The notes: generated from the sequence alone by a model not told the origin. Positions 592-22,316 are shown, numbered from the stretch's first letter. The stretch: 64,000 nucleotides of DNA from a bacterium (GCA_018401295.1 JAGYLJ010000002.1:26727-90726); one strand, 5' to 3'. A program made the numbers and translations.

Positions 592-597
592 GAATAG

Positions 598-720: not shown

Positions 721-729
721 CATATCGAA

Positions 730-879
730 ATGATAAATAAAATATCTTTAAAGTTTGTACTTGGTTTTTTTGGAATTTTGTTGCTAGCTATGATTGTTTT
801 GGTGGTAACTAGTTATTTTGATCAGAGTGGAGTTGATACAACTTCACCAGAAATTAATTTAGCAAATAATCAAATTTAA
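730..879 (+). CDS. Small (49 aa) membrane-anchored hypothetical protein
   Basis: ATG ORF below track cutoff, MINKISLKFVLGFFGILLLAMIVLVV..., one hydrophobic helix. Confidence 0.35.
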   Translation: MINKISLKFVLGFFGILLLAMIVLVVTSYFDQSGVDTTSPEINLANNQI

Positions 880-898
880 CTTACTTTAATAAAAAATT

Positions 899-5478: not shown

Positions 5479-5591
5479 TTGACAATTTTGCTTGTTTTTC
5501 GTTATTTTAAGGACTTCGTTGACTTTTTTAGTGCCACAGCTATACTAACAGTATTAGTCGAGGTAATTATTAAATTTAATTCAAAGTAAAT

Positions 5592-5945
5592 ATGGATTCT
5601 TTTAAAGACGGGAAATATATTATAGGTTTTTTGATAGGAATTATTTGTTCTTTTTTGGTAATGGGTGGGATTAAAAATTATCTAGGCGTTGATGACGCAG
5701 ATTTGTCTGATACACAGGTACCAGGAGAAAGCCAAGTGATTGGTGAAAAAGAAGGTGAAGATTTAACTGTTGTTGATGAACAGTCTGAATCTGATGTTGT
5801 TAGCCAAACTACACCTGTTAATTCTGGAGTAACTAAACCTGAGGACCCACATAGTCCAGAATTACAGAGACTTGATTTAATTCTAAGAGAGGCTGGAAAG
5901 ATGGTAGATAGAATGTCTGCAGAGATAAATTCTGCCACAAAATAA
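5592..5945 (+). CDS. Membrane-anchored protein sharing a ~65-aa module with the giant protein
   Basis: KPEDPHSPELQRLDLILREAGKMV here versus KPEDPNSLELQRLALILKEAQKLV in ORF 1438..5478. Confidence 0.6.
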   Translation: MDSFKDGKYIIGFLIGIICSFLVMGGIKNYLGVDDADLSDTQVPGESQVIGEKEGEDLTVVDEQSESDVVSQTTPVNSGVTKPEDPHSPELQRLDLILREAGKMVDRMSAEINSATK

Positions 5946-6113
5946 TACTGAGGACTAAATCTAACTAAAAAAGTATAAAATGCTATTTTATTGCATATCT
6001 CTTTTATATATGCTTTAATAATACCAATAAAGATCAGAGAAAGTAGGCACCACTCCAATTTGGGGTATAAATTAAGCCCTACCGAGGTCGAAACATATAA
6101 GTGTTTTTCTCTG

Positions 6114-6142
6114 AATCTTATTAGAAATAATAAGATTTTTTT
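6114..6142 (+). terminator. Intrinsic terminator-like hairpin
   Basis: AATCTTATTA-GAAA-TAATAAGATT followed by a T-run. Confidence 0.5.
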
Positions 6143-6239
6143 AGTTCAGTAGTGGGCTAAATAAACCCTGTTAGAAACCGATTCGTATTTTTATTAGATT
6201 TCAGCGTTTTAGTTTTTGATGGGGTAAATAAAAATTAAT

Positions 6240-6731
6240 ATGGCAATTAAAAAAGGGAAGAAGGAAGAAATTTGTAAAAAAGTGAAAGACGTTGTAGATG
6301 ATTTTTCTACGGTTGTTTTTGTTAACTTTCACGGCCTTAATGTTATAGACACGACCCAACTTAAGTCTTCTTTAAGAGAAGATGATTCGTTTTATCTAGT
6401 TGCTAAAAAGTCTTTAGTTAAGAGGGTTTTGCAAGATTCTTCTATTAAAGGTGAAATCCCAGAGTTGGACGGTGAACTTGCGTTAGCTTATAGCAAGGAT
6501 CAAATTTCCCCAGCTCGAGGTGTTTTTGAATTTCAAAAGAAACATAAAGAAAAAATCTCTATTTTGGGGGGTATTTTTGAGGGGACCTATGTTGATAAAG
6601 ACAAAATGTCATCAATTGCACAAATTCCTTCACTATTGACGTTGAGAGCTCAATTTGTGAACCTCATTAATTCACCAATTCAAGGTTTAGTTATAGCTTT
6701 GAATCAAATAGCTGAGAAACAAGAAGTTTAA
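6240..6731 (+). CDS. rplJ: 50S ribosomal protein L10
   Basis: Translation typical of L10; followed by rplL. Confidence 0.9.
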   Translation: MAIKKGKKEEICKKVKDVVDDFSTVVFVNFHGLNVIDTTQLKSSLREDDSFYLVAKKSLVKRVLQDSSIKGEIPELDGELALAYSKDQISPARGVFEFQKKHKEKISILGGIFEGTYVDKDKMSSIAQIPSLLTLRAQFVNLINSPIQGLVIALNQIAEKQEV

Positions 6732-6747
6732 ATTATTAAAATAATTT

Positions 6748-6850
6748 AAAAGTCTATAAGGTCCATAAAGTTCATAAAGTCGGAAGTAAAATTTGCAAAA
6801 CAAATTTTATAGAATAGACTTTACGACTTTAAAGACTTTTGACTTTTGAC
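6748..6850. promoter_or_regulatory. Long imperfect palindrome of GACTTT-type units around the hairpin AAAATTTG-CAAAA-CAAATTTT (6788-6808)
   Basis: Left arm AAAGTC.. units mirror right arm TAGACTTTACGACTTTAAAGACTTTTGACTTTTGAC; lies between rplJ and rplL. Confidence 0.6.
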
Positions 6851-6860
6851 TAACAATATT

Positions 6861-7373
6861 ATGACTGAAGATAAAAAAGATGATGTAGTAGTTTCTGAAG
6901 ATGTTGTGGAAACTCCTGCCGTAGTAGAAGAAGTAAAAGCAGAAAAAGTTGAAGAAAAGAAAGAAGTAAAAGAGGAAGCTCAAGGAGCAGAAGTTGAAGT
7001 ACCAAAGAAATTTAAAGCAATTGTTGATGAAATTGATTCAATGTCAGTTTTAGATTTATATGAATTAGTAAAATTGCTTGAGAAGAAATTTGGTGTTTCT
7101 GCTGCAGCCGTTGCTGTTGCTGGGGGTGCATCAAATGGAGGAGGTGAAGAGTCAGAAGAAAAAAGTTCTTTTGATGTTGAACTTACATCTTCCGGAGCTC
7201 AAAAAATAGCGGTTATTAAGGTAGTTAAAGCTTCTCTAGGTTTAGGTCTAAAAGAAGCTAAAGAATTAGTTGATTCTGCTCCTGTAGCTCTAAAGAAAGG
7301 AATGAAGAAAGATGAAGCTGAAGCTTTAAAGAAAGAGATTGAAGACGCAGGTGGAACAGTAGAATTAAAATAA
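6861..7373 (+). CDS. rplL: 50S ribosomal protein L7/L12 with an acidic/Lys-rich N-terminal extension of ~48 aa
   Basis: C-terminal 120 aa canonical ([22 protein letters not shown]...[11 protein letters not shown]); first ATG at 6861. Confidence 0.9.
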
Positions 7374-7400
7374 AGGGTTAAATCTACGAATATAGGTATA

Positions 7401-7436
7401 AAAAAAGACGATTTGCTAAAGCAAATCGTCTTTTTT
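7401..7436 (+). terminator. Intrinsic terminator after rplL
   Basis: AAAAAAGACGATTTGC-TAAA-GCAAATCGTCTTTTTT. Confidence 0.8.
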
Positions 7437-7473
7437 GTTGCTGGTATAAAAGACAGGTGTTATAATATTTACC

Positions 7474-8088
7474 ATGGAAATATTAGCTAAATTATTTGGA
7501 AGTGTTGCGAGAGTTAAAATAATGAAGTTATTTTTACTTAACCCTGAACAAGCCTTTGAAAATAAAGAAATCTCTGAGAGAACAAAGATTACTGCAACGG
7601 CCTCAAGAACAGAATTGAATTTATTAAGTAAAATAGACTTTATTAAAAAAAAGACTTTTTTTAAGGAAAGTGTAAAAAAGTCTAACAGTGGCAAAATAAG
7701 TAAAAAAAAGGTTGAAGGTTGGATTTTAAATAAAGATTTTCGTTTTATAGCGCCTTTAGAAAATCTTTTGGTTGAGAGTGGAACTTTGAAATCAGAGGAA
7801 ATTATTGATAAGTTAAAAAGTGTTGGAAATTTGAAGTTATTGATAGTGGCAGGTGTCTTTATCCAAGATATGAATAGCCGAGCTGACATTTTGATAGTGG
7901 GGGATAATTTGAACGAAGTATTTCTGGAAAAATCAATGAGGGTCTTAGAATCTGAGGTTGGGAAGGAATTAAGATATGTAGTTTTTGAGACAGATGATTT
8001 CAAATATCGTTTGGGTATATACGATAAATTATTACGTGATATTCTTGATTACTCTCATAAGAAGATTATAAATAAAATTGGAGTTTAA
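7474..8088 (+). CDS. Hypothetical protein, possible winged-helix N-terminus
   Basis: ORF track; the antisense ORF 7416..8003 is judged a shadow. Confidence 0.55.
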   Translation: MEILAKLFGSVARVKIMKLFLLNPEQAFENKEISERTKITATASRTELNLLSKIDFIKKKTFFKESVKKSNSGKISKKKVEGWILNKDFRFIAPLENLLVESGTLKSEEIIDKLKSVGNLKLLIVAGVFIQDMNSRADILIVGDNLNEVFLEKSMRVLESEVGKELRYVVFETDDFKYRLGIYDKLLRDILDYSHKKIINKIGV

Positions 8089-8249
8089 TTTATCCACAGT
8101 TTTCTTCCTTTTATTCTTGTTTAAATGTTATTATGTAAGTTACAAATAGAAAAGAGGTCGTTAACCCATGGCAATTAATGTTATACATATTGTTGTGGTG
8201 ATGTTTATTAGCAATTATTATTAATTTTTTTAATCTTAAAATAAATAAC

Positions 8250-8933
8250 ATGATATCAACTTGGAGTGAGATATTAAATCAATCGTTTCAAAGTCTTTGG
8301 ATCGGTGTAGTAAGTTTTATGCCTAATTTGATTGTTGCCATTATTATTTTCATAATTGGTTGGATAATCAGCGCTCTTTTTGGCAGGATAGTGGCGCAAA
8401 TAATTCATTCTCTTAATATAGATAAAGTTCTTAGAAGAACTGGTGTAGAGAAAACTTTAAATAAAGCTGGTTTTCAACTAAATTCTGGTAAGTTTATCGG
8501 TTCTTTAGTTAAGTGGTTCATCATCATTGTATTTTTGGTGGCGGCCTTTGACGTATTGGGACTTGTTCAAGTTAACCAATTTCTACAGCAAGTAGTTCTG
8601 CTTTACCTTCCTAGGGTGATTGCTGCTGTATTAATTCTCTTAGTGGCAGCTGTTATTGCTGAAGTTGTTGAGGGGTTAGTAAAAGGATCAGCAAAAATGG
8701 CTGACGTTAAAGTTTCTCATTTTTTGGGAGTGATAGCTCGTTGGTCTATTTGGGTATTTGCAGTATTGATGGCACTTTACCAAATGGGGGTTGCTGCTAC
8801 TTTCATTCAGACTATTTTCACAGGGTTAGTCGTTGCTTTTTCTTTAGCAATTGGATTAGCTTTTGGTTTGGGTGGCAAGACTGCAGCCGGAGAAGCTATT
8901 GAAAAGTTCAAGAAAAATATTGGCAGTAAATAA
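8250..8933 (+). CDS. Polytopic membrane protein with conserved-TM-helix repeats (MscS-related-like)
   Basis: Several hydrophobic helices with repeated pattern; family assignment from memory. Confidence 0.6.
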   Translation: MISTWSEILNQSFQSLWIGVVSFMPNLIVAIIIFIIGWIISALFGRIVAQIIHSLNIDKVLRRTGVEKTLNKAGFQLNSGKFIGSLVKWFIIIVFLVAAFDVLGLVQVNQFLQQVVLLYLPRVIAAVLILLVAAVIAEVVEGLVKGSAKMADVKVSHFLGVIARWSIWVFAVLMALYQMGVAATFIQTIFTGLVVAFSLAIGLAFGLGGKTAAGEAIEKFKKNIGSK

Positions 8934-8951
8934 ATCAGATTGACCAGAAAG

Positions 8952-8990
8952 AAAAATCCACCTAATTTTTTTTGAATTAGGTGGATTTTT
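8952..8990 (+). terminator. Intrinsic terminator
   Basis: AAAAATCCACCTAATT...AATTAGGTGGATTTTT. Confidence 0.8.
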
Positions 8991-9000
8991 ATTATTTTTA

Positions 9001-9028
9001 TTGACATTATTGTAAATTTTGTTAAGAT
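9001..9028 (+). promoter_or_regulatory. Sigma70-like promoter for the rpsS operon
   Basis: TTGACA (9001-9006), 16-nt spacer, TAAGAT (9023-9028). Confidence 0.5.
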
Positions 9029-9077
9029 GTAGTTGTTAAATTGGACTCCCAATGAGGAGTTAGTTTTTTTAAATTAC

Positions 9078-9407
9078 ATGACAAGATCACTTAAAAAAGG
9101 TCCTTATGTGGACGAAAAACTTTTGAAGAAAATTGAAGGTAAAAAGCCAGCTGATATTGGTGTGATTAAGACGTGGGCGAGAGCCAGTCAAATATCACCA
9201 GAAATGGTTGGTTGGACTTTTGGAGTTCACAACGGAAAAGAACATAAGGAAGTTCTTGTAACTGAAGATATGGTAGGTCATCGTTTGGGTGAATTTTCTC
9301 CATCTAAGAAATTCATAAAACATGGAGGACGTATGCAGAAAGAATTAGATCAAAAGAAGAAAGAGGCAGAAATAGCTTCAGCGAAAGCAGCTAAAGCTTC
9401 AGTTTAA
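9078..9407 (+). CDS. rpsS: 30S ribosomal protein S19 (Lys/Ala-rich C-terminal tail)
   Basis: [12 protein letters not shown]... canonical S19 start; the track ORF begins earlier at 9033. Confidence 0.9.
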
Positions 9408-9412
9408 AAATC

Positions 9413-9808
9413 ATGACAATTATTAAAGCAAAATTAAGCGATTATAGAGAGTCACCAAGAAAAGTACGTTTGGTAGCTGATTTGGTTCGTGGTAAAAAAG
9501 TTGAGAGGGCGCTACAAGAACTTAGTTTTGTTAATAAAAAAGCTACGAGAGTAATAAAGAAACTTCTAGAGTCAGCAGTAGCTAATGCAAAACACAACGA
9601 AGGGATTGATAAAAAAGATTTGCTTTTACAGGAAATTAGAGTAGACAATGGACCAACAATGAAGAGATTCAGAGCTGGCGCGAGGGGACAGGCTTATCCC
9701 TTAAAAAGGAGAACAAGTCACATTTCAATTGCTCTTGAGACTGTTACACCGGTTGTTGAAAAGGAAGAAACCGTTAATAAGTTAAAAAAATCAGATTTAA
9801 AGAAATAA
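9413..9808 (+). CDS. rplV: 50S ribosomal protein L22
   Basis: Translation and operon position. Confidence 0.9.
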   Translation: MTIIKAKLSDYRESPRKVRLVADLVRGKKVERALQELSFVNKKATRVIKKLLESAVANAKHNEGIDKKDLLLQEIRVDNGPTMKRFRAGARGQAYPLKRRTSHISIALETVTPVVEKEETVNKLKKSDLKK

Positions 9809-9809
9809 T

Positions 9810-10469
9810 ATGACACACGTAGTACATCCATATGCGCAAAGACTAGGAATATTAAGAGATTGGAAATCTCGTTGGTTTGGTTCGCGTGAACAATATAGGG
9901 AATATTTAGAGACAGATATTTTAGTTAGGGAATTTTTAGAAAAAGAATTAAGAAAATTTTTTATTAGTTCTATAGAAATGGAAAGAAGCGAAAAGCTTTT
10001 TAGAATCGTTATCAAGACTTCTCGAGCAGGGATGTTAATTGGAAGAAGTGGAGAAGGAGCACAAAAAATAAAAAATGATGTTTTGTCTTTCTTGAACAAA
10101 CATAAATTGTCGCAATCAAAAGAATTAAAAATTGACATAGAAGAGATTAGGTATCCAGAAACAGATGCCGCTGTCGTCGGAATGATGGTAGCAGAAGGTT
10201 TGGAAAAAAGGCTTCCTTTTAGAAGGATTTTAAAGACCACTATAGACAAGGTATCAGCTAGTAGAGATGTCAAAGGTGTAAAGATTGCATTATCAGGACG
10301 TTTAGGGGGAGCAGAAATGGCCAGAAGAGAGAGTTTGAAAAAAGGGAGAATTCCTCTTCAAACATTGAGAGCTGATGTTGATTTTGCAAAAGAAAAAGCT
10401 TATATGTCATATGGGATTGTAGGAATTAAGGTTTGGATTTATAAGGGGGACATTTTTAATAAGAAATAG
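9810..10469 (+). CDS. rpsC: 30S ribosomal protein S3
   Basis: Translation (KH domain, [10 protein letters not shown]) and position. Confidence 0.92.
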
Positions 10470-10479
10470 ATTTAAAATT

Positions 10480-10905
10480 ATGTTATTTCCAAAAAAAGCA
10501 AAACATAGAAAATGGCAGACTGGGAGAGAAAATCCTGAGAAGGTTGGTGTTGCTACTCGTGGTAACAAGGTTTCTTTTGGTTCTTTTGGATTGAAAGCTT
10601 TGGCTGGAGCAAGAATTAAATCTAATCAAATTGAAGCAGCTAGAAGAGCTTCTAAAAGATATATTGGAAAAACAGGTATGATGTGGGTTAGAATTTTCCC
10701 AGATCGACCTTTCACATCAAAACCAGCTGAGGTAAAAATGGGTAAAGGAAAAGGAAATCCAGAGGGGTATTGTGTTCCAGTTAAACCAGGTAGAATTCTT
10801 TTTGAGGTAGACGGTGTTGATGAAAAAACAGCCAAAGAAGCGATGAGAAAAGCGGGTACCAAATTACCTGTTAAGACAAAGATCGTTGCTAGAAAAGATA
10901 TTTAA
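10480..10905 (+). CDS. rplP: 50S ribosomal protein L16
   Basis: Translation and position. Confidence 0.92.
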
Positions 10906-10923
10906 ATTTTTTATATAAAAATT

Positions 10924-11100
10924 ATGGATTTTAAAAAGAAAACAGATGAAGATTTGAATAAAACATTATCAGAAAAAAGATCTGATTTAAAGGATTTTCG
11001 TTTTGGTTTATCAGGAAGTAAAACAAAGAATGTTAAAAAAGGGAAAGAAATAAAAAGAGATATCGCGCGTGTTTTGACAGAAATGAATAGTCGTAAATAA
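10924..11100 (+). CDS. rpmC: 50S ribosomal protein L29 (58 aa, below the ORF-track cutoff)
   Basis: Hand translation MDFKKKTDEDLNKTLSEKRSDLKDFRFGLSGSKTKNVKKGKEIKRDIARVLTEMNSRK; lies between rplP and rpsQ. Confidence 0.85.
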   Translation: MDFKKKTDEDLNKTLSEKRSDLKDFRFGLSGSKTKNVKKGKEIKRDIARVLTEMNSRK

Positions 11101-11112
11101 TCAGTATTAATT

Positions 11113-11397
11113 ATGAAAAAAGAAACAGAAAACAAAAAAGAAGAAAAAATAGAAGCACCTAAAAGCAGAAAAAAAGTTTTAGGTGGTGTAGTTACTTCTA
11201 CAAAAATGCAAGATACTGTAGTTGTTTTAGTTAAGAGATTTGTAAAACATCCTAAATACGATAAATATATGACTATTTCAAAGAAATATAAGGCAGATAG
11301 TAAAGGAGGTGAATATCAGGTTGGAGATGAAGTTAAGATTGAAGAATGTAATCCAATATCAAAAGACAAAAGATTTAAAATAGCAGGTAGAGAGTAG
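11113..11397 (+). CDS. rpsQ: 30S ribosomal protein S17
   Basis: Translation and position. Confidence 0.9.
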   Translation: MKKETENKKEEKIEAPKSRKKVLGGVVTSTKMQDTVVVLVKRFVKHPKYDKYMTISKKYKADSKGGEYQVGDEVKIEECNPISKDKRFKIAGRE

Positions 11398-11479
11398 AAG
11401 GTGGAAAGTAGTAAAATTTTAGTAAAACAAAAATTTAAAAAACTACATTCTACATTCCACATCCTACATACCAAAAATT

Positions 11480-11851
11480 ATGATTCAACCACAAACAATA
11501 GTAAAAATAACAGATAATTCAGGAGGAAAAGTTGGCCGTGTTTTCAAAGTGCTCGGGGGTTCAAAAAGACGTTATGCTCGGATTGGTGATATTGTTGTGT
11601 TGTCTGTTCAGGTAGCTGAACCAAGGAAACAGGTTAAAAAGAAAGATGTTTTAAGAGCTGTGGTTGTAAGACAAAAAAAGGCTTTTAGAAGGAAAGATGG
11701 TTCATATATCAGTTTTGATGACAATGCTGTCGTCATAATTGACAAGGAAAAGAAAGAACCAAAGGCGGGAAGAATCTTCGGCCCTATTCCAAGAGAAATT
11801 GCTGATTTAGGTTACCAGAAGATAATTTCTTTAGCCCCTGAGGTTATTTAA
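11480..11851 (+). CDS. rplN: 50S ribosomal protein L14
   Basis: MIQPQTIVKITDNSGGK... Confidence 0.93.
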   Translation: MIQPQTIVKITDNSGGKVGRVFKVLGGSKRRYARIGDIVVLSVQVAEPRKQVKKKDVLRAVVVRQKKAFRRKDGSYISFDDNAVVIIDKEKKEPKAGRIFGPIPREIADLGYQKIISLAPEVI

Positions 11852-11860
11852 TATAAAATC

Positions 11861-12168
11861 ATGAAAATAAAAAAAGGAGACATTGTTAAAATAATTTCTG
11901 GTAAAGATAAGAATAAAACCGGTAAGGTCTTAAAGGCTTTTCCTGTAAAAGAACAGGTTGTCGTTGAGAATGTTAATTTAAAAAAGAAACATCAGAAAGC
12001 GAATAAAGGGGGACAGAAAGGTCAAATTATTGAGAAAACTTATCCTGTTCATGTTTCCAATGTGGCTTTTGTTGATTCAAAAACAAAAAAAGCACAAAGA
12101 TCGGGAAGAAGTTGGTAAATGGTAAATTTGTTAGAGTAAGCAAGAAAAGTGGTACAGTTTTAAATTAA
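11861..12168 (+). CDS. rplX: 50S ribosomal protein L24, interrupted by an apparent -1 frameshift near 12100
   Basis: Frame 0 stops at 12118; the conserved C-terminus IGKKLVNGKFVRVSKKSGTVLN is encoded in the -1 frame at 12100-12168. Confidence 0.8.
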
Positions 12169-12187
12169 GTCTGTTAATAACACTATT

Positions 12188-12751
12188 ATGAATATCAAGG
12201 AAAAACAAAAAAAATTTTTTGACGAAGCGAAAAAGGAATTTGCTTATAAAAATATTATGCAAGCGCCTTCATTGGATAAAGTTGTTTTGAATACTGGGGT
12301 TGGTAAAGCTTCTAAGGATAAAAAAAGATTGGATTTGATTAATGACCGTTTAATAAAAATATCAGGTCAAAAACCTGTTCCTAGAAAAGCGAAGAAATCC
12401 ATCGCTGCTTTTAAAGTTAGGGAGGGTGAAGTAGTTGGTTACCAAGTGACATTGAGAGGAAATAGGATGTTTGGTTTTTTGGATAAATTTGTTGATGTAA
12501 CCTTACCAAGAACTAAAGATTTTAGAGGACTACCTTTAAAATCAATTGATGAAATGGGTAATTGTACTATTGGGCTTAAGGAACATACTATTTTCCCAGA
12601 AACATCGGATGAAGAATTAAGGGATGTTTTTGGTTTATCTGTTACTATTGTGACTACCTCTGATAATAAGGAGGAGACAACTGCTTTTTTAAGGTATCTT
12701 GGTTTCCCTTTCAAAAAAGAGGAAGAAATAAAGAAAAAAGCAAGAAAATAA
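12188..12751 (+). CDS. rplE: 50S ribosomal protein L5
   Basis: Translation and position. Confidence 0.92.
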   Translation: MNIKEKQKKFFDEAKKEFAYKNIMQAPSLDKVVLNTGVGKASKDKKRLDLINDRLIKISGQKPVPRKAKKSIAAFKVREGEVVGYQVTLRGNRMFGFLDKFVDVTLPRTKDFRGLPLKSIDEMGNCTIGLKEHTIFPETSDEELRDVFGLSVTIVTTSDNKEETTAFLRYLGFPFKKEEEIKKKARK

Positions 12752-12774
12752 TTAAATTTAATATAAAAAAATAA

Positions 12775-12812
12775 AAAATAACACCCCAAGAAATTGAGGT
12801 GTTATTTTTTTT
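12775..12812 (+). terminator. Intrinsic terminator after rplE
   Basis: AAAATAACACC...GGTGTTATTTT plus T-run. Confidence 0.75.
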
Positions 12813-12838
12813 GGTTACTATAGACACTTCACTATAAT
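12811..12838 (+). promoter_or_regulatory. Candidate promoter of the inserted gene, overlapped by a 7-bp inverted repeat
   Basis: TTGGTT, 16 nt, TATAAT (12833-12838); inverted repeat CACTATA-n7-TATAGTG. Confidence 0.4.
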
Positions 12839-12917
12839 TAGTGTATAGTGTTGGACAGGTAGTTTAGGTTCGGGCTTTATTGAAATAAACATTTAAACGA
12901 AAAGAGGAGGATTTGAA

Positions 12918-13577
12918 ATGAAGAAATTGTTGGTCACACTGTTGGTTATGGGTATTTTTTTTGTGAGTTTACCTTTAGCAGATGCTTCTTTCTTTTTCAC
13001 TCGTTATCAAAATCAACAGGTGGAGGGGGGTGGAAGCATTGAGTGGACTTCCAGTATTATGGAGTTGGATTGGAAGGAGTGGAGTTTTGGGGCCGAGGTA
13101 GGAACTGGTCCTGATGGGTATATGTATACTGTTCCTTATTTTAATAGGAAACTTCCTTCTTTGGGAAAAGGTTGGGAAGTAGGGGCGAGACTTGAACAGG
13201 ACTCTCTTCAGAATACTTCGTTTGCTCCATCCATTCGTTATGCTGGGGTAACGGAGGTCTGGCCGAAAAATAAGTTTCTCTTTCTTCTTCAAGTAGATTA
13301 TTTTATTGGAGATCAAGAAAAGTTAGAAGTTTGGGGAAACGTAACATATCTTAGCTTCGGCCAGTGGCGTATTGGAGCAGAGGCATTTATTCGGGCCGAT
13401 CGTTTCGGTAATAGGAATTATCAGTTCCGCCCTCTTCGTCTTGGGTATAGATTCCCTGGTTTTGGTCCTTTTAAGGCGGTTACTCCTTTTACTATGTTTG
13501 AGTATCGCTGGGACAAATGGACGGAGGAGACCGTTGAAAGTAAATCGGGATTCCTCGGTGTTGTGTTTAATTGGTGA
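12918..13577 (+). CDS. Secreted protein with outer-membrane beta-barrel-like features, inserted between rplE and rpsN
   Basis: Signal peptide MKKLLVTLLVMGIFFVSLPLADA; strong RBS AGAGGAGG; aromatic/Gly-rich alternating strands; C-terminal ...GVVFNW; visibly GC-richer than its neighbours. Confidence 0.7.
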   Translation: MKKLLVTLLVMGIFFVSLPLADASFFFTRYQNQQVEGGGSIEWTSSIMELDWKEWSFGAEVGTGPDGYMYTVPYFNRKLPSLGKGWEVGARLEQDSLQNTSFAPSIRYAGVTEVWPKNKFLFLLQVDYFIGDQEKLEVWGNVTYLSFGQWRIGAEAFIRADRFGNRNYQFRPLRLGYRFPGFGPFKAVTPFTMFEYRWDKWTEETVESKSGFLGVVFNW

Positions 13578-13592
13578 AATTATGAATCTTTT

Positions 13593-13630
13593 GGGCTGGG
13601 AGGTAAGGTAAACCTCTCAGCCCTTTTTTT
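13593..13630 (+). terminator. Intrinsic terminator
   Basis: GGGCTGGGAGG...CCTCTCAGCCC then TTTTTTT. Confidence 0.8.
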
Positions 13631-13676
13631 ATAATTATATTTTAACAAAAGAAGGTTATTTTAATTCAATATTTTA

Positions 13677-13705
13677 TTGACTTTTGGGGCTTATCTTGAT
13701 AATAT
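13677..13705 (+). promoter_or_regulatory. Sigma70-like promoter restarting the spc operon
   Basis: TTGACT, 17 nt, TAATAT. Confidence 0.5.
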
Positions 13706-13750
13706 AAACCAGTATTCGCTGTATGCGAATTTTATTAAAATTAAAGGAAT

Positions 13751-13936
13751 ATGGCAAAAAAATCAGTAATTGCGAGAGCAAATAAAAAACCGAAGTTTTC
13801 TTCAAGAATCGTCAGAAGATGTTTTAAATGTGGACGAGGAAGAGCTTATATGAGTGAATTTGGTTTGTGTAGAATTTGTTTTAGAGAATTAGCTAACGAA
13901 GGTAAAATTCCGGGGATTAAGAAATCATCTTGGTAA
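13751..13936 (+). CDS. rpsN: 30S ribosomal protein S14, type Z (zinc-binding)
   Basis: 61 aa; CxxC...CxxC (CFKCGRG...CRIC). Confidence 0.9.
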
Positions 13937-13945
13937 AAAAATAAT

Positions 13946-14341
13946 ATGAGTAGAGATTCAATTTCAGAATTAATAATAGGTATAAAAAACGCAGGTAAAG
14001 CAGGAAAAGATTCTGTTAAGTTTCCTTACTCTAATTTTAAGATGGCAGTTGCAGAGGTCTTAAAAAAAGAAGGATATGTTAAGTCTGTTTCAAAAGTTGG
14101 AAAAATTCCAAAGAGAGTCTTGGAGGTTGGAATCGCTTACAAAGAAAGAGATGTTCCTAAGATAAAAGATGTTGTTAGAGTTTCAAAATTATCAAAGAGG
14201 ATTTATAGAGGAACAAAGGATATAAAACAGGTAAAGAATGGTTATGGTCTTTCAGTTATATCAACTTCAAATGGAATTATGACAGATAAAGAGGCTAATA
14301 AAGCAAAAGTGGGAGGAGAGGTTCTCTTTAAGATTTGGTAA
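13946..14341 (+). CDS. rpsH: 30S ribosomal protein S8
   Basis: Translation and position. Confidence 0.9.
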   Translation: MSRDSISELIIGIKNAGKAGKDSVKFPYSNFKMAVAEVLKKEGYVKSVSKVGKIPKRVLEVGIAYKERDVPKIKDVVRVSKLSKRIYRGTKDIKQVKNGYGLSVISTSNGIMTDKEANKAKVGGEVLFKIW

Positions 14342-14349
14342 ATATTTTT

Positions 14350-14886
14350 ATGAGTAGAATAGGAAAACAACAAATAGAAATTCCAGAAAAAACAGAAGTC
14401 ACTATTACCGGTGATGAACTTTTAGTTAGGGGTCCTTTGGGTGAATTAAAAAAGAATTTTAAACCAGAGGTTGTAAAGGTAGAAATTAAAGATAGGATAA
14501 TTTCATTAGCTCCTTTAGAAGAGACGCCTTTTAGTAAAGCTCTCTGGGGGACAACTGCTTCTCATATTATAAATATGATAAAAGGAGTTAATGAGGTTTA
14601 CCAGAAAAAATTGATTGTTGAAGGGGTTGGTTTTAAATCTGAAGTAAAAGGCGATAAGTTAGTAATGAGTTTAGGTTTTTCTCATTTGGTTGAGATTGAT
14701 ATCCCTAAAGAATTAACGGTTACAGCAGAAAAAAATAATATCACAGTATCAGGTATAAATAAGGAATTAGTGGGACAGTGGACAGCTATGGTAAGATCTA
14801 AAAAGAAACCAGAACCCTATAAAGGTAAGGGAATTAGATATAAAGATGAGGTGGTTCGTCGAAAACAAGGTAAGAAGAGCGTATAA
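14350..14886 (+). CDS. rplF: 50S ribosomal protein L6
   Basis: MSRIGKQQIEIP... canonical start; the track ORF starts at 14335. Confidence 0.9.
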   Translation: MSRIGKQQIEIPEKTEVTITGDELLVRGPLGELKKNFKPEVVKVEIKDRIISLAPLEETPFSKALWGTTASHIINMIKGVNEVYQKKLIVEGVGFKSEVKGDKLVMSLGFSHLVEIDIPKELTVTAEKNNITVSGINKELVGQWTAMVRSKKKPEPYKGKGIRYKDEVVRRKQGKKSV

Positions 14887-14895
14887 TATATTTTT

Positions 14896-15246
14896 ATGGA
14901 TAAAAGTAAAACAAAAATTGAAAAGAGATCAAGACGACGTTTAAGGACTCGGGCAAAAATATCAGGAACAGCTGATAGGCCTCGTTTGACTGTGTTTAAG
15001 TCAAATAAGTATATTTATGCTCAAATTATAGATGATGAGAAGAAACAAACAATTGCTTCAGCTTCTTCGATTAAAATGGGAGCTAATGATTTAGTAAAAA
15101 AGGCTAAGTTGGTGGGAAGTGAGTTGGCTGAAATAGCAAAGAAAAAGAAGATTAAAGAAGTAGTTTTTGATAAAGGGGGGTATTTATTTACTGGGAGAAT
15201 AAAGGCTTTGGCTGATGGTTCTCGTGAAGCTGGGTTGAAGTTTTAA
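14896..15246 (+). CDS. rplR: 50S ribosomal protein L18
   Basis: Translation and position. Confidence 0.9.
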   Translation: MDKSKTKIEKRSRRRLRTRAKISGTADRPRLTVFKSNKYIYAQIIDDEKKQTIASASSIKMGANDLVKKAKLVGSELAEIAKKKKIKEVVFDKGGYLFTGRIKALADGSREAGLKF

Positions 15247-15260
15247 TTTGATTTAAAAAA

Positions 15261-15899
15261 ATGACAGAAGAAAAAGAAAAAAATATAAATATTAATGAAA
15301 CTGAAGCAAAGAAAGACGAGAAAATCGTTCCTGACGTTACTGGTGATGATGAAATAAAAAAAACTCCTATAGTGCCGGCAACAGCTGGAACTACGAGACC
15401 AACAAGACCAGCAAGAGTTTTCAAGAAGAATTCCAGTTTCAGAAGAAAAAGAACAGAACGTCCTAGATCAGAATTTGATCAAAAAATTATTAAAATTAGA
15501 AGGGTTACTCGTGTGGTAAAGGGGGGAAGAAGATTCAGTTTCAGTGTGGCGATGGTTATCGGTAACAAGAAGGGATCTGTTGGAGTAGCTGTTGCAAAAG
15601 GAGCTGATGTAGCTTTAGCTATTGAAAAAGCGGTTAAAAAAGCTAAAAGAGATTTGGTTAAGTTAAAATTAACTTCTAATAAATCAATTATTCATGATGT
15701 TGAAAGTAAATACTGTTCTTCTGTTGTTAAGATTTCTCCGACTAAAGAAGGAAGGGGTTTAAGCGCTGGTAGTTCGGCAAAAAATGTTTTAGAATTAGCT
15801 GGAATTACAGATGTGGTATCCAAGATAACTTCAAGAAGTAGAAATAAATTAAACATCGCTATGGCGACGTTACAGGCTCTGAAGGAATTTAAAATATAA
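15261..15899 (+). CDS. rpsE: 30S ribosomal protein S5 with a ~60-aa N-terminal extension
   Basis: Core RVTRVVKGGRRFSF...; followed directly by rplO with no rpmD. Confidence 0.9.
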   Translation: MTEEKEKNININETEAKKDEKIVPDVTGDDEIKKTPIVPATAGTTRPTRPARVFKKNSSFRRKRTERPRSEFDQKIIKIRRVTRVVKGGRRFSFSVAMVIGNKKGSVGVAVAKGADVALAIEKAVKKAKRDLVKLKLTSNKSIIHDVESKYCSSVVKISPTKEGRGLSAGSSAKNVLELAGITDVVSKITSRSRNKLNIAMATLQALKEFKI

Positions 15900-15904
15900 T
15901 TATC

Positions 15905-16336
15905 ATGCAACTTCATCAAATAAAAAGAAAAAATCCAAATAAAAAGGCCGTTCAGATTGGGAGAGGAGGGAAGAGAGGAAAAACTTCTGGTAGAGGCCAT
16001 AAAGGTCAGAATGCTAGGGCGGGTACTAGTAAGAGACCAGAAATGAGGGATATTATTAAAAAATTACCTAAAAAAAGGGGTTATCGTTTTAAGAGTATCC
16101 AAGTAAGGCCAGTGAATGTTAATTTGATTTCTCTTGAGAAAAATTTTTCTGATGGGGATAAAATAACTCCAATCGTTCTATTTGAAAAATCTTTAATCAG
16201 TAAAAAAGGGGGTAGTTTACCTGTTATCAAGATTCTATCAGATGGTAAAATTACAAAAAAACTTGTTGTTTCAGGTTGCCTTTTTTCAAAGACAACAAAG
16301 GAAAAAATAGAAAAAGCTGGAGGTGAGATAGAATAA
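15905..16336 (+). CDS. rplO: 50S ribosomal protein L15
   Basis: Translation and position. Confidence 0.9.
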   Translation: MQLHQIKRKNPNKKAVQIGRGGKRGKTSGRGHKGQNARAGTSKRPEMRDIIKKLPKKRGYRFKSIQVRPVNVNLISLEKNFSDGDKITPIVLFEKSLISKKGGSLPVIKILSDGKITKKLVVSGCLFSKTTKEKIEKAGGEIE

Positions 16337-16342
16337 ATTGTT

Positions 16343-17611
16343 ATGAACTTTATACATAAATTTAAGTTAATTCTTCGAGATAAAAATTTAAGAAACAGGA
16401 TACTTTTTGTGTTAGGGGCTTTAGTGGTTTTTAGATTACTAGCTTCTATTCCTATTCCGGGTGTTAATATTGAACGACTTAATGATTTCTTTTCTAATAA
16501 TCAGTTTCTGGGCATGTTGAATATCTTTTCTGGTGGAGGTTTGTCTAATTTATCTATTGTGATGTTAGGTGTTTCTCCTTATATTACTGCATCTATTATT
16601 ATGCAGTTGGCAACCATGATGTTCCCTAGGTTAAAGCAGTTGTACCACGAAGAGGGTGAAGCAGGCAGAAAGAAATTTAGCCAGTATTCTCGTATGTTAA
16701 CTATACCATTGGCATTTATTCAAGGGTTTGGTTTCCTTAAATTATTACAAAGTCAGGGTATTGTTAATATCATGGGTAATTTTGAGTTATTTACTAATAT
16801 TGCTGTTATTATGGCAGGTTCTATATTCTTAGTTTGGATAGGAGAGCTTATTAGTGAATATGGAATCGGTAACGGTGTTTCCCTCTTGATTTTTGCTGGT
16901 ATAGTGGCCAGTTTACCGACGGCTATTTCACAATTATATCTTGGTTTTGAGGTTACACAAATTCCTCTTTTGCTTGGTTTCCTTGCGGTAGCAATTGCTA
17001 TTATATTAGGGATTGTTATTGTGACAGAGGCAGAGAGACCTATTCCAATTAATTATGCTAAAAGAGTTAGGGGTTCAAAAGTTTATGGTGGTATATCTAC
17101 TTACTTACCGCTGAGGGTAAATCAGGCAGGAGTGATTCCTATTATTTTTGCCATGTCAATAATGTTATTTCCTCAAATGATTTTAAATTTCTTTGCAGGG
17201 ACAACTAATGAGGTTCTGAAGGTTTTTGTTGATTTTACTTTAAGAATTCTAGAAAACGGTTGGTTTTATGCTATTTTTTACTTTGTTTTGGTCTTCTTAT
17301 TTACTTATTTTTATACAGCTGTTACGTTTGACCCAGAGGCAATTGCTACTAATTTGAAGAAGAGTGGGGCCTTTATTCCAGGAATACGACCAGGTCAATC
17401 TACTTCGGAGTATTTAGGAAAGGTTTTGACCAGGATAACTTTGGTGGGAGCATTATTCCTTGGTGTTGTGGCCGTTTTACCTCTAATTATGAAAGCAATA
17501 ACAGGGATAGCTACTTTAGCGATTGGAGGAACTGCGCTCTTAATTGTAGTTTCTGTTGTTCTTGATTTGATAAAGAAAATTGACGCCCAAATCTCTATGA
17601 GGGAATACTAA
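16343..17611 (+). CDS. secY: Preprotein translocase subunit SecY
   Basis: 422 aa polytopic protein in the canonical position. Confidence 0.93.
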   Translation: MNFIHKFKLILRDKNLRNRILFVLGALVVFRLLASIPIPGVNIERLNDFFSNNQFLGMLNIFSGGGLSNLSIVMLGVSPYITASIIMQLATMMFPRLKQLYHEEGEAGRKKFSQYSRMLTIPLAFIQGFGFLKLLQSQGIVNIMGNFELFTNIAVIMAGSIFLVWIGELISEYGIGNGVSLLIFAGIVASLPTAISQLYLGFEVTQIPLLLGFLAVAIAIILGIVIVTEAERPIPINYAKRVRGSKVYGGISTYLPLRVNQAGVIPIIFAMSIMLFPQMILNFFAGTTNEVLKVFVDFTLRILENGWFYAIFYFVLVFLFTYFYTAVTFDPEAIATNLKKSGAFIPGIRPGQSTSEYLGKVLTRITLVGALFLGVVAVLPLIMKAITGIATLAIGGTALLIVVSVVLDLIKKIDAQISMREY

Positions 17612-17612
17612 A

Positions 17613-17636
17613 AATTTGCAAAAAAGTTTGCAAATT
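17613..17636. terminator. AATTTGCAAA-n4-TTTGCAAATT hairpin (member of an intergenic hairpin family)
   Basis: Perfect 10-bp stem immediately after the secY stop. Confidence 0.6.
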
Positions 17637-17754
17637 AAATTTTTAATTTTTGAATTTTATAAATAATTTCTAATGTATAAATTTTCGTGTTTAAAAATTA
17701 AAAATTTAGATTTATTTAAAAATTATAAAATTATAAAATTATAAAATTTTTATT

Positions 17755-18339
17755 ATGGATAAACAAGCATATATTTTTATTGGCCGTTCTGGTTGTGGTA
17801 AAGGGACACAGGTTAAATTGTTGATTGAAGAATTGAAGAAACAAGGGAAAGAAGTTTTTAATTTAGAGATGGGAAATAAATTTAGGGAATTTATTAAGGG
17901 TGAATCCTATTCAAGCAAATTAGCTAAAGAAATCGGTGATAGGGGCGGTTTACAGCCTGAATTTTTGGCAGTGTCTATATGGGCTAAGACGATCACAGAT
18001 AATTTGAAAGGAGGCGATACTATGGTGTTAGATGGTGTTGCAAGAAAAATATTAGAAGCAAAATTATTAGATACAATTTTTGGTTTTTTGGGTTATAAGA
18101 GGCCAGTAGTAATTTTTATGAATGTTTCTAGAAAGTGGTCTGAAGATAGGATGTTAGGAAGAGGGAGATCTGATGATGACGCGCAAGAAATAAAAAGAAG
18201 ATTAGATTGGTACGAAACAGATGTAGAGCCAGTTATTGAGTGGTATAGGGGAAATCCTGAATATAATTTTCTGGATATAAATGGGGAACAGACAATTGAA
18301 GAAGTTCATCAGGAAATAATGGATAAGATTATTAATTAG
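17755..18339 (+). CDS. adk: Adenylate kinase-like nucleoside monophosphate kinase
   Basis: P-loop GRSGCGKGTQ; position after secY. Confidence 0.75.
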   Translation: MDKQAYIFIGRSGCGKGTQVKLLIEELKKQGKEVFNLEMGNKFREFIKGESYSSKLAKEIGDRGGLQPEFLAVSIWAKTITDNLKGGDTMVLDGVARKILEAKLLDTIFGFLGYKRPVVIFMNVSRKWSEDRMLGRGRSDDDAQEIKRRLDWYETDVEPVIEWYRGNPEYNFLDINGEQTIEEVHQEIMDKIIN

Positions 18340-18364
18340 GAAAAGAAAGTTGTTTTGTGTTCCT

Positions 18365-18395
18365 CTTTTGACTTTATGGACTTTCGACTTTAGAC
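18365..18395 (+). promoter_or_regulatory. GACTTT-repeat leader motif CTTTTGACTTTATGGACTTTCGACTTTAGAC
   Basis: Ends 8 nt upstream of the map ATG; the same 20-mer lies upstream of trxB. Confidence 0.6.
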
Positions 18396-18403
18396 TAATT
18401 ATT

Positions 18404-19174
18404 ATGTTACCTAATATTTATACAAAAGAAGAAATAGAAATTTTAAGAGAAGGAGGAAAAATCTTGAATAATATTTTGCGTGTTGTAGCACAAGAAGCAA
18501 AAGTAGGTGTTACTCTAGATACACTTAATTCTTTGGCTGAAAAATTGATTAAGGAAGGGGGGGGAAAGCCAGCTTTTTTAAATTATAAAACTAGTAAATT
18601 TGCTAGGCCCTATCCGTCCTCGTTATGCGCTTCCGTTAACGATGAAGTTGTTCATGGAGTAGCAAAAAATAATCATCGTAAACTAGAAGAAGGTGATATT
18701 GTTAATTTAGATTTAGGTTTTACTTATAAAGGTTTGATAACAGATAAGACCTTAATGGTTGGCATAGGAAAAATAAAATCAGAAGATATTAATCTAATTG
18801 AAACTACTAGATTAGCTCTTGAAGCTGGTATAAAGGCTGTTAAGAGTAACAAAACTACTAATGATATTGGTTGGGCTATTGAGGAGGTTACTAAAAAGAG
18901 GGGATTTGTTGTTGTTAGGGAATTAGGTGGTCACGGTGTAGGTAGAAATGTTCACGAAGAACCATTCATTCCTAATTTTAAAGAAGGGAAAAGTGGAATT
19001 CAATTGAAAGAAGGGATGGTAATAGCTTTGGAACCGATTGTTACTTCTGGCACGGCTGAGATATTTTTAGCTGACGATGGTCATACCTACAAGACGGTTG
19101 ATGGGACCAATTGTGCTCAGTGGGAAGATACGGTTTTAGTAACGGCTACAGGTTATGAAATCCTCACTAGATAA
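18404..19174 (+). CDS. map: Methionine aminopeptidase type I
   Basis: MLPNIYTKEEIEILREGGKIL...; the track ORF starts at 18350. Confidence 0.9.
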   Translation: MLPNIYTKEEIEILREGGKILNNILRVVAQEAKVGVTLDTLNSLAEKLIKEGGGKPAFLNYKTSKFARPYPSSLCASVNDEVVHGVAKNNHRKLEEGDIVNLDLGFTYKGLITDKTLMVGIGKIKSEDINLIETTRLALEAGIKAVKSNKTTNDIGWAIEEVTKKRGFVVVRELGGHGVGRNVHEEPFIPNFKEGKSGIQLKEGMVIALEPIVTSGTAEIFLADDGHTYKTVDGTNCAQWEDTVLVTATGYEILTR

Positions 19175-20123: not shown

Positions 20124-22316
20124 ATGAAATTAGATAAAATACTAAGGTTTGTGTCTCTGAGCGCTGTCTTTTTGATACCTTTTGTCCCCCTAGTGGTTAT
20201 GAGTTCTCTTTTCTTTCCTTATATTGTGGGTAAGAATTTGCTATTTAGGGTTTTGGTGGAGGTAGCCTTTGGATCATGGGCTATCCTCGCGATAAGGGAT
20301 AGGAGATATCGTCCTAAACCGTCTTGGATTTTAGGTGGTATTTTGGTTTTTGTAGGTGTAATTTTTTTAGCTGACTTATTAGGTGAAAACCCATTGAAAA
20401 GCTTTTGGAGTAATTATGAAAGGATGGAAGGCTGGGTGACGCTTCTTCACTCATTTGGATATTTTATTGTTGTTGCTTCTCTCCTTAATTCAAAAAAATT
20501 GTGGAGGTTTTTTTTACATACAACCGTTTTTGTTAGTGTTTATGTTGCTCTATCTGGGGTAGTTAAGCTGTTGGGTCAACAAGGTGTTTCTAGATTAGAT
20601 TTGAGTTTCGGGAATGCTTCTTATTTGGCTGTCTATATGCTTGTTCATATCTTTATTATTTTGTTTCTGTGGAATTCTAGGAAAGAAGAACACAAAAGGA
20701 TTGGTTTTTGGAATTGGTTTTATGGCCTGACTATTTTTACTGAAATTATTATTCTTTACCACACAGCTACCCGTGGAGCTATTTTAGGTTTCATTGGCGC
20801 CATACTGTTGATGTCTCTTTTAATTGCCATTTTTGAAAAAGAAAAAAAGGTTTTAAGGAAAATAAGTTTTGGTATTTTAGTAGGGACTTTGGTTTTAATA
20901 GGTAGTTTCTTTTCTTTTAAAGATTCTGATTTTGTTAGAAGTAGTCATGTCTTGAGTCGTTTTTCTAGCATTTCTCTTCAGGAAACCACCACCAAATCAA
21001 GGTTTATGATTTGGAATATGGCATGGGAAGGGGTAAAAGAAAGGCCTCTATTAGGATGGGGTCAGGAAAATTTTAATTACGTATTTAACAAAAATTATGA
21101 TCCTAAAATGTATGGGCAGGAGTCGTGGTTTGACAGAACACATAATGTTTTCTTTGATTGGTTAATAGCCGGAGGGTTTCTTGGTCTACTGGCTTACTTA
21201 TCTTTGTTTGGAGCTGTTCTGTACTATCTTTGGAATGGGAAAAGAAGTGGTAATTTTTCTTTAGTGGAGAAAAGTATCTTTACGGGTTTGTTAGCTGGAT
21301 ATTTTGTTCATAACTTATTTGTTTTTGATAATATAACTAGCTATATCTTATTTTTTACAATTTTAGGTTTCGTTCATTGGCGGGCTAATAATTTAGAAGA
21401 ACAGGACAAGAGGAAAGGTTGGCTGGACGGGTTAGATGAAGATACTACCGCAAAAATTATTACTCCTGTTATTATTATTCTTACTATTTTCTCTGTTTAT
21501 TTTTTTAATGCTAAATGTATTTTAGCCAATCGTGCACTTCTTCAGGCTATTGCTCCACAACAAGAAGGGATAGATAAGAACTTAGAATTTTATAATAAGG
21601 CTTTGTCTTATAATTCATTCGCCAATCAAGAGATTAGAGAACAGTTGATGCAGTTTATGGTAAAAATAAAAGATTTAGATTTAGATTCTGATGTCAAAAA
21701 TGAACTGTTTAATTTAGCGGTCTCAGAAGCAAAAAAAGAAATTGAGAGAGACCCATTGAATGCCAGGACGGAAGTTTTTCTAGGTTCTTTATTAGGAATG
21801 TATGGACATATAGATGATGGTTTAGAGCATCTAAAGAAAAGTTTGGAAATTTCACCAAAAAAACAATCAATTAGGTTTGAGATTGGTTCAACTTATATAA
21901 TTCAAAATCAGTACGATAAGGCTTTTGATATTTTTAAAGAGACATATGAGTTAGAGCCAAATTATTATCAGGCCAAAAGTTTATATGTTTTGTCTGCGAT
22001 TTATGCAGGGAAGGAAAAAATTATAGAGGAATCCTTGGGTCCTATAGATGAAATAGGTGTTGTATTTGATATGAATTTTGTGAAAGCTTATAGTACCTTG
22101 GGGGACAATTTAAAGTCTATTGAAATTTTGGAGAAATTAGTTGAAGAAAACCCAGAAAATGTACAGTACCATATTTCTTTGGCGGCAGCTTATTTTGAGA
22201 ATAAACAAAATATAAAATCGATTGCTGAGTTAGAAAAAGCGATTGAATTAGATCCTAACTTTAAAGAACAGGGAGAGAGATTCATTGAAGAAATAAAGGC
22301 AGGGAAAAGACCTTAA
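20124..22316 (+). CDS. O-antigen ligase / Wzy_C-like polytopic membrane protein with C-terminal TPR repeats
   Basis: 730 aa; motif THNVFFDWLIAGGFLGLLAY; TPR-like C-terminus. Confidence 0.75.
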   Translation: MKLDKILRFVSLSAVFLIPFVPLVVMSSLFFPYIVGKNLLFRVLVEVAFGSWAILAIRDRRYRPKPSWILGGILVFVGVIFLADLLGENPLKSFWSNYERMEGWVTLLHSFGYFIVVASLLNSKKLWRFFLHTTVFVSVYVALSGVVKLLGQQGVSRLDLSFGNASYLAVYMLVHIFIILFLWNSRKEEHKRIGFWNWFYGLTIFTEIIILYHTATRGAILGFIGAILLMSLLIAIFEKEKKVLRKISFGILVGTLVLIGSFFSFKDSDFVRSSHVLSRFSSISLQETTTKSRFMIWNMAWEGVKERPLLGWGQENFNYVFNKNYDPKMYGQESWFDRTHNVFFDWLIAGGFLGLLAYLSLFGAVLYYLWNGKRSGNFSLVEKSIFTGLLAGYFVHNLFVFDNITSYILFFTILGFVHWRANNLEEQDKRKGWLDGLDEDTTAKIITPVIIILTIFSVYFFNAKCILANRALLQAIAPQQEGIDKNLEFYNKALSYNSFANQEIREQLMQFMVKIKDLDLDSDVKNELFNLAVSEAKKEIERDPLNARTEVFLGSLLGMYGHIDDGLEHLKKSLEISPKKQSIRFEIGSTYIIQNQYDKAFDIFKETYELEPNYYQAKSLYVLSAIYAGKEKIIEESLGPIDEIGVVFDMNFVKAYSTLGDNLKSIEILEKLVEENPENVQYHISLAAAYFENKQNIKSIAELEKAIELDPNFKEQGERFIEEIKAGKRP

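Follow-up and report, generated by a model that had tools for sequence, protein, structure and literature searches.

The S10-spc ribosomal-protein cluster, which is of typical composition and lies on the + strand of a 64,000-nucleotide stretch of one bacterial genome (hereafter the window, whose positions serve as coordinates unless another locus is named), surrounds an open reading frame (ORF) at 12918-13577 (+) that encodes 219 amino acids ending in GFLGVVFNW. We consider, with a probability of about 0.68, that this ORF functions as a monocistronic gene whose product is a Sec-exported, porin-like barrel belonging to a family of Patescibacteria, and that it is placed at a junction typical of the lineage. 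The protein is best assigned to the outer-membrane-barrel class as part of a new family that lacks annotation, in a phylum where this class is unexpected. Patescibacteria, also called the Candidate Phyla Radiation (CPR), account for much of bacterial diversity and are treated as monoderm and host-dependent. Assignment of the host to the Paceibacteria (CPR/Patescibacteria) is supported by the ribosomal protein L5 of the window, whose best matches, at 72-73% identity, come from metagenome-assembled genomes (MAGs) of Candidatus Paceibacterota or Patescibacteria, while the matches at 56-73% identity come from MAGs labelled Paceibacterota, Parcubacteria, Kaiserbacteria, Nomurabacteria, and Patescibacteria. 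This agrees with an initial annotation of the window, made from the sequence, which had regarded the organism as a CPR bacterium. There is no rpmD (L30) between rpsE and rplO in the window.

Export signal, C-terminal motif, and predicted fold

The first 23 residues of the protein (MKKLLVTLLVMGIFFVSLPLADA, encoded at 12918-12986, +) read, by rule, as a Sec signal peptide, which has no lipobox cysteine and whose A-x-A cleavage site is followed by SFFF, and a hydrophobic h-region occurs in 32 of 33 family members, in line with the signal peptide proposed in the initial annotation. Signal peptidase I would cleave after ADA (amino acid 23) and leave a mature chain of 196 residues (12987-13577, +, stop codon included), 20% of which are aromatic and 11% glycine, with no cysteine. 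The C-terminal GFLGVVFNW (13548-13574, +) had been likened to the β-signal of outer-membrane barrels, and the likeness extends to the family: the terminal W, the F at -2, and the G at -5 correspond to a terminal aromatic residue (F/W) in 33/33 members, a hydrophobic residue at -2 in 32/33, and G at -5 in 29/33.

Structure prediction by AlphaFold2 with an alignment of 30 sequences gave a predicted local distance difference test score (pLDDT) of 92.7 (91-93 for all five models) and a predicted template modeling (TM) score of 0.83. The model consists of 12 consecutive antiparallel strands with connectors of 2-9 residues, and the whole mature protein forms the barrel; a single-sequence run was uninformative (pLDDT 42). 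A Foldseek search of the PDB with the model yielded 118 matches at E ≤ 1e-3, the best 50 of which were all outer-membrane barrels. KdgM (E 5e-7, TM-score 0.70-0.73 normalized to the target) and PcoB (TM-score 0.62) led the matches, and OmpG, VhGalP, Tsx, and autotransporter β-domains were among the others listed. In BFVD, a library of viral structures, Foldseek found only barrels resembling outer-membrane proteins. The protein is therefore predicted with high confidence to be a 12-stranded outer-membrane-type β-barrel, and the suspicion of a β-barrel voiced in the initial annotation gains a concrete model.

Within the alignment of 30 sequences, the columns of most strands alternate between ∼90-100% hydrophobic and ∼90-100% polar or charged residues, and R29, R107, E155, and R171, which are invariant or nearly so, lie on the polar face of the strands. 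The hydrophobic face is read as facing lipid and the polar face as facing the lumen. Known barrel geometry implies that a hydrophobic core could not fill a closed barrel of 12 strands. Together with this, the fold, the residue alternation, and the β-signal argue for a membrane-embedded, water-filled, porin-like barrel, and membrane insertion and channel activity are suggested by the same three features of the model and the family. The mature chain would fold into a compact antiparallel barrel with very short loops and with one hydrophobic and one polar or charged face, insert into a bilayer outside the cytoplasmic membrane, and act there as a small hydrophilic channel lined by the conserved Arg and Glu residues. 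It is quite unlikely, in our estimation, that the protein is instead a soluble or wall-associated exported barrel, with a ligand-binding or structural role, for which the porin-like model is a look-alike. Such a protein would suit a CPR cell, in which no outer membrane is known, and would agree with the absence of sequence matches to any outer-membrane protein family; moreover, the orientation of the hydrophobic face was read from the sequence alternation and not from coordinates. However, none of the best 50 of the 118 PDB matches is a soluble barrel, the width of a closed 12-stranded barrel is as problematic here as stated above, nearly every strand across the family is ∼90-100% hydrophobic on one face and charged on the other, and neither the aromatic content of the mature chain nor the terminal F/W motif speaks for solubility.

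Comparison with known barrels

The best structural match, with the model as query, was the KdgM/NanC family (PF06178; PDB 4fqe and 4pr7; VhGalP, 8xua), the members of which share with the modeled protein a mature length of ∼200 amino acids, 12 antiparallel strands, a monomeric barrel, and a Sec signal peptide. In addition, the C-terminal pattern of the new family, ...S..S...G[VI].[FIV].F, resembles the ...SENSYRIGVSFKF of NanC. Membership was nevertheless rejected, because PF06178 gave no match at E ≤ 10 with the window protein or at E ≤ 1 with 21 members of its family, while E. coli NanC, the positive control, scored 1.2e-28. Alignment of the family with E. coli NanC by hhalign had a probability of 3.8%, with the last hairpin alone aligned. 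The new family also differs in that it has no neighbors for pectin or sialic-acid catabolism and in that its host phylum is considered monoderm.

PcoB/CopB (PDB 7pge; PF05275), likewise a 12-stranded barrel, gave the highest query-normalized TM-score with the model, 0.62. Membership in this family was rejected as well: identity is ≤13%, there is no Pfam match, and no copper-resistance genes are found in the neighborhoods, which consist of ribosomal, ileS, TrmB, methyltransferase, or exopolysaccharide genes. OmpG, Tsx, and the β-domains of autotransporters and intimin matched the model at E 1e-6 to 1e-4 and represent the same architectural class, but they have other strand numbers (14 in OmpG) or an attached passenger domain, whereas the window protein is all barrel. 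An oligomeric β-pore-forming toxin was also considered and rejected, since in the model a single chain forms the whole barrel and the best 50 of the 118 matches include no toxin fold. As far as the model can be trusted, the window protein is shaped like, and probably works like, KdgM/NanC, PcoB, and Tsx, but it is not a member of any of these at the sequence level.

Distribution and selection of the family

The family is tiny, with ∼35 sequences among billions searched. A search of 5.8 billion clusters with the single protein returned only itself and one protein of 67% identity, an exhaustive HMMER search over 1.84 billion representative proteins found 20 proteins of 195-227 amino acids, and profile searches added ∼12 further members. 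No relatives outside the family appeared in the 1.84 billion representatives or the 5.8 billion clusters; Pfam, NCBIfam, PHROGs, and PDB sequences gave no match to the single protein or to family profiles, even at permissive thresholds; and no homologs were found in collections of phages, plasmids, and viral contigs. The full-family alignment was too divergent for scans of such collections, and the close subfamily, to which the window gene belongs, and the main clade were scanned separately: the former is absent from the JGI metagenome contigs, and the scan for the latter gave only five loci. The possibility, raised in the initial annotation, that the homologs are common soluble CPR proteins does not match this small set of barrel-type sequences.

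Compared with the 67%-identical homolog, the ratio of nonsynonymous to synonymous substitution rates (dN/dS) is 0.11 at a dS of 1.7, where synonymous sites are saturated, and this indicates purifying selection and suggests that the gene is functional. The 17 family loci collapse to ∼8 independent larger gene neighborhoods, plus several contigs too short to show neighbors. The larger neighborhoods are CPR-like in gene content, one containing a type IV secretion system (T4SS) pilin and another DUF4012, and the sources of two family members assign them to Parcubacteria or Patescibacteria. Judged from these contexts, the family is small and unannotated and can be traced so far only to Patescibacteria.

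The barrel gene and its putative transcription signals

The 219-amino-acid ORF is the sole plausible gene between rplE (12188-12751, +), which was taken from the ORF list, encodes L5, and closes the upstream transcription unit, and rpsN (13751-13936, +), which encodes a 61-amino-acid S14 of the Zn-ribbon type, opens the downstream unit, and was likewise found in the ORF list and matched by tblastn in 62 relatives. A Shine-Dalgarno sequence, AGAGGAGG (12903-12910, +), lies 7 nt ahead of the ATG and would provide a strong ribosome-binding site. Downstream of rplE, a putative intrinsic terminator (12773-12812, +) is composed of an A-tract, arms of 17 nt, and a T-run after 12810; its hairpin has a free energy of -15.9 kcal/mol (z = -4.1), and it looks bidirectional and typical of the lineage. 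The barrel gene itself is closed by a second, strong one (13593-13630, +), in which a hairpin of 12 pairs, 8 of them G-C (13593-13623; -23.5 kcal/mol, z = -4.7), precedes T7. In either case 0/200 shuffled sequences were as stable, and the two hairpins rank first and second among the terminator-like sites of 9000-18500, which number 10, whereas 4.3 were expected. Thus, as judged by sequence alone, each side of the gene has what defines an intrinsic terminator, namely a G+C-containing hairpin that is followed by a U-tract and surpasses its shuffles. The ORF with its ribosome-binding site, and its enclosure by terminators, had been described in the initial annotation, and all of these were found again in their places with significant hairpins.

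The promoters it had named can be upheld only in part. The TATAAT at 12833-12838 is present, overlapped by a promoter-like region (12821-12849, +; TAGACA-17-TATAGT, 10/12 matches to the consensus, which is its only support), and so is the TTGACT at 13677, which opens a promoter-like site ahead of rpsN (13677-13705, +; TTGACT-17-TAATAT with an upstream TG). Promoter-like matches are, however, no commoner than chance in the AT-rich region 9000-18500 (37 found against 30.7 ± 5.4 expected), and for this reason the TATAAT and TTGACT matches are weak evidence by themselves. The rpsN site is followed by a small, weak leader hairpin (13714-13730, +; -6.6 kcal/mol, z -1.6). Rfam gave nothing beyond sub-threshold chance matches near the terminator. 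An antisense ORF (12975-13316) and a nested ORF (13372-13611) were taken as by-products of the higher G+C content of the barrel gene. The arrangement between two terminators suggests that the barrel gene is a monocistronic, autonomous unit.

The junction of rplE and rpsN as an operon break and insertion site

In model bacteria, the spc genes constitute a single operon in which rplE and rpsN are tightly linked, and the initial annotation had assumed that the two are normally adjacent. That assumption fails in this lineage. The loci around rplE were compared in 80 relatives (L008-L087, with rplE at ∼4001-4560 in each), 62 of which show both genes. The gap between them is 72-3550 bp long with a median of 462 bp and exceeds 600 bp, with unrelated genes inside, in 28/62, while the control junctions are tight, with a median of 76 bp between rplX and rplE (>600 bp in 2/80) and of ∼0 between rpsN and rpsH. 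The cargo of the junction is mutually unrelated and occurs on either strand: it includes ROK, NADAR, Band_7, peptidase M50, ParB_N, and peptidoglycan-binding proteins, an SDH-type protease, a reverse transcriptase with bAvd, and many unknowns. A terminator hairpin, counted when a hairpin of ≤ -9 kcal/mol with a T-run was present ≤150 nt after the stop codon, follows rplE in 37/80 cases but rplX in only 3/81, rpsN in 3/63, and rpsH in 1/61. The sequences thus suggest that the junction, which spans 12752-13750 in the window, is a lineage-wide operon break and insertion hotspot in Paceibacteria.

The barrel gene is found at rplE in 0/80 relatives, which leaves no sign of an insertion that is ancestral across the lineage. 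In L009, the nearest relative in which both genes can be seen, there is no inserted gene, and the 187-nt gap contains a terminator and, at ∼4650-4725, a promoter-like site (ATTGACTTT) and a small leader hairpin, in the same layout as at 13677-13730 of the window. The ancestral order would have been rplE, terminator, rpsN promoter, and rpsN, and the promoter-like site and hairpin may be a leader or regulatory element of the rpsN operon. The cassette of ∼820 bp (about 12813-13630) lies between the terminator and this rpsN promoter. The initial annotation had regarded the TTGACT promoter as a new one that restarts the operon after the insertion; since L009 has both the promoter and the leader without any insert, they were not made for that purpose. 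Since the S10-spc cluster of Paceibacteria usually has a termination point behind rplE and a restart at rpsN, a promoter-gene-terminator cassette at this junction would probably exert no polar effects.

No integrase, tRNA, target-site duplication, or terminal or attachment repeats were found at the site, and only low-complexity A/T matches flank the cassette; the locus therefore lacks what marks a mobile element or genomic island (an integrase or transposase, repeats, and a target-site duplication). It resembles operon-internal insertion hotspots in that a self-contained promoter-gene-terminator unit lies between conserved genes, with other cargo at the same place in 28/62 relatives, but it differs from them in the absence of integrase, tRNA, and attachment repeats and in its position at an intrinsic boundary of terminator and promoter. 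Fold and location had both been called unexpected. The former still is, as an outer-membrane-type barrel in CPR, whereas the location is largely explained by the operon break and hotspot common to the lineage. A cargo site of this kind should be useful for the annotation of CPR genomes and for finding accessory genes.

Base composition

The G+C content (GC) of the barrel gene is 0.429 and that of its third codon positions (GC3) is 0.382; the 49 other genes of the window average 0.338 and 0.247, and none of them reaches either value of the barrel gene (z = 3.6 and 3.3, respectively). These values would be expected if the gene had recently been imported from a diderm as a porin gene and were now a functionless passenger marked by its foreign composition, as would the finding of the insertion in 0/80 relatives and the restriction of DNA similarity with the closest homolog to the ORF. 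We regard such an import as very improbable. The composition is raised in 8/10 homologous loci of other low-GC CPR contigs (GC 0.39-0.44 and GC3 0.39-0.47, with flanks of 0.33-0.39); together with the window, the loci concerned are L001, L006, L007, L093, L095, L096, and L097 (GC3 0.38-0.47). Because the homologs have it in common even though dS is saturated, raised GC is not simply a sign that the gene arrived recently from elsewhere. It seems to characterize the composition of the family as such, and neither a simple recent import nor amelioration explains it. The excess over the flanking genes noticed in the initial annotation was thereby confirmed, but its value as a foreign mark was weakened. 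Recent import is further contradicted by the lack of homologs outside the family in all of the protein, phage, plasmid, and viral-contig searches described above, by the CPR-like content of all larger neighborhoods, by the dN/dS of 0.11, and by the lack of integrase, target-site duplication, and terminal repeats.

Gene neighborhoods of the homologs and a candidate partner

In the close subfamily, which includes the window gene, the barrel gene is a standalone unit; it adjoins ileS in L006 and in L096, a contig of 1.13 Mb, and TrmB in L097. The homologs in L001 and L096 stand alone with an analogous terminator of their own. In L096, a 470-nt spacer (9533-10000) between the barrel gene and ileS, which is on the - strand, contains GGTGGTACCACG on the ileS strand; this T-box-like sequence may be an ileS leader. 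In the main clade, the barrel gene starts 17-33 nt after a class I S-adenosylmethionine-dependent methyltransferase gene (TehB/UbiE-like) and lies beside a divergent gene for a TrmB-family regulator. This methyltransferase-barrel-TrmB block recurs in four lineages (L002/3, L004/5, L095, and L099; at 8246-10618 of L002, 542-2981 of L004, 2837-5171 of L095, and 2061-4386 of L099) and is usually situated between rpsF-ssb-rpsR-efp and recA.

A different context is seen in L093 and L094, where the barrel gene ends an exopolysaccharide-type cluster (1-9266 and 865-11900, respectively) that encodes a family 2 glycosyltransferase, UDP-glucose dehydrogenase, a Wzy_C-like protein, DUF4012, a protein of ∼96 amino acids, a multipass membrane protein of ∼390-403 amino acids, the barrel, and RmlC. 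The barrel copy of L094 is frameshifted around position 10372. The multipass protein, of ∼380-403 amino acids overall, which has an N-terminus containing ...DDYSWLL... and the motif RKGILETILADK, is encoded directly upstream of a barrel member or a divergent paralog in three genomes, the pairs being at 1495-2637 and 2711-3385 of L002, 6769-7941 and 8001-8642 of L093, and 8739-9950 and 10001-10640 of L094. The L002 protein has 37% identity to its homolog (E 2e-80) and is followed by the divergent barrel paralog (hhalign probability 95%, E 3.6e-8); because L002 repeats the pairing of L093 and L094, the combination of membrane protein and barrel is conserved. The multipass protein has no match in Pfam, NCBIfam, or the PDB and is not encoded in the window. 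Judging from its position, it may help to assemble or export the barrel.

The membrane that would hold the barrel

Two bilayers are candidates for the insertion of the barrel: these Paceibacteria may have an outer lipid layer that has gone unrecognized, or the barrel may enter a host cell's outer membrane. Several points weigh against a porin-like protein in such a cell. We know of no obvious home for a barrel of this type in CPR cells. The fold is predicted, the alignment used for it is shallow (30 sequences), and no sequence-level link to any characterized porin family was found. No BamA/Omp85 was seen in the 64-kb window, which is only part of the genome. The rarity of the family excludes it as a core part of the envelope across the phylum. 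When 845 kb of Paceibacteria DNA were crudely screened, only the barrel family, one divergent paralog, and one large surface protein came up, and in the literature searched, which was covered in part, no report of outer-membrane-type barrels in CPR was found. CPR bacteria have been proposed to lack an outer membrane, on the grounds that TonB-ExbBD and PilQ are absent and that microscopy suggests a non-Gram-negative envelope, and their envelope families, among them DUF4012 in exopolysaccharide clusters, resemble those of Gram-positive bacteria (PMC6744442). Moreover, the CPR T4SS is of the monoderm type (10.1101/2025.01.22.634366).

The β-signal, the exopolysaccharide context, and the membrane partner favor a role of the barrel in the outer envelope of the producer, while its rarity, variable location, and residence in a hotspot favor an accessory factor that is possibly directed at the host. 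In the latter case, an epibiont would secrete the barrel, which would enter the outer membrane of a Gram-negative host and tap its periplasmic solutes. This appears unlikely to us, for all that the patchy distribution, the standalone cassettes at the rplE-rpsN hotspot, ileS, and TrmB, the presumed lack of an outer membrane in the producer, and the compact, short-looped barrel, which recalls the small monomeric porins at the top of the fold search, are what one would expect of it. A β-signal of the type used by the β-barrel assembly machinery suggests assembly by an insertase from the periplasmic side rather than entry from outside through lipopolysaccharide; several members are encoded in an exopolysaccharide or envelope cluster of the producer and paired with the multipass membrane protein; and no precedent was found in the literature searched.

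The broader notion that certain Paceibacteria construct an outer lipid layer and have their own route for inserting barrels, or else export porins into the outer membrane of a host, is put forward tentatively, as something possible rather than probable. For the layer of their own, the multipass protein of ∼380-403 amino acids is the candidate helper. Either version, if true, would make the simple picture of monoderm CPR untenable. A porin-type barrel, as we prefer to read the protein, would provide a clonable handle on the outermost envelope layer of Paceibacteria and on the access of epibionts to host solutes.

Other genes of the window

Elsewhere in the window, several features of the envelope are typical of CPR: a giant secreted surface protein of 1346 amino acids with LTD and fn3 domains (1438-5478, +), a membrane protein with Wzy_C and TPR domains that adjoins murB and secA (20124-22316, +), and four small membrane or signal-peptide proteins in a row (37713-39238, -) that include at least one T4SS pilin (PF18895). 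Peptidase_S74, the intramolecular chaperone domain of endosialidases, occurs in phage tail fibers and some surface fibers. A protein of 567 amino acids (26871-28574, +) has this domain at amino acids 440-499, and its gene is preceded by that of a small protein with a signal peptide (26398-26697).

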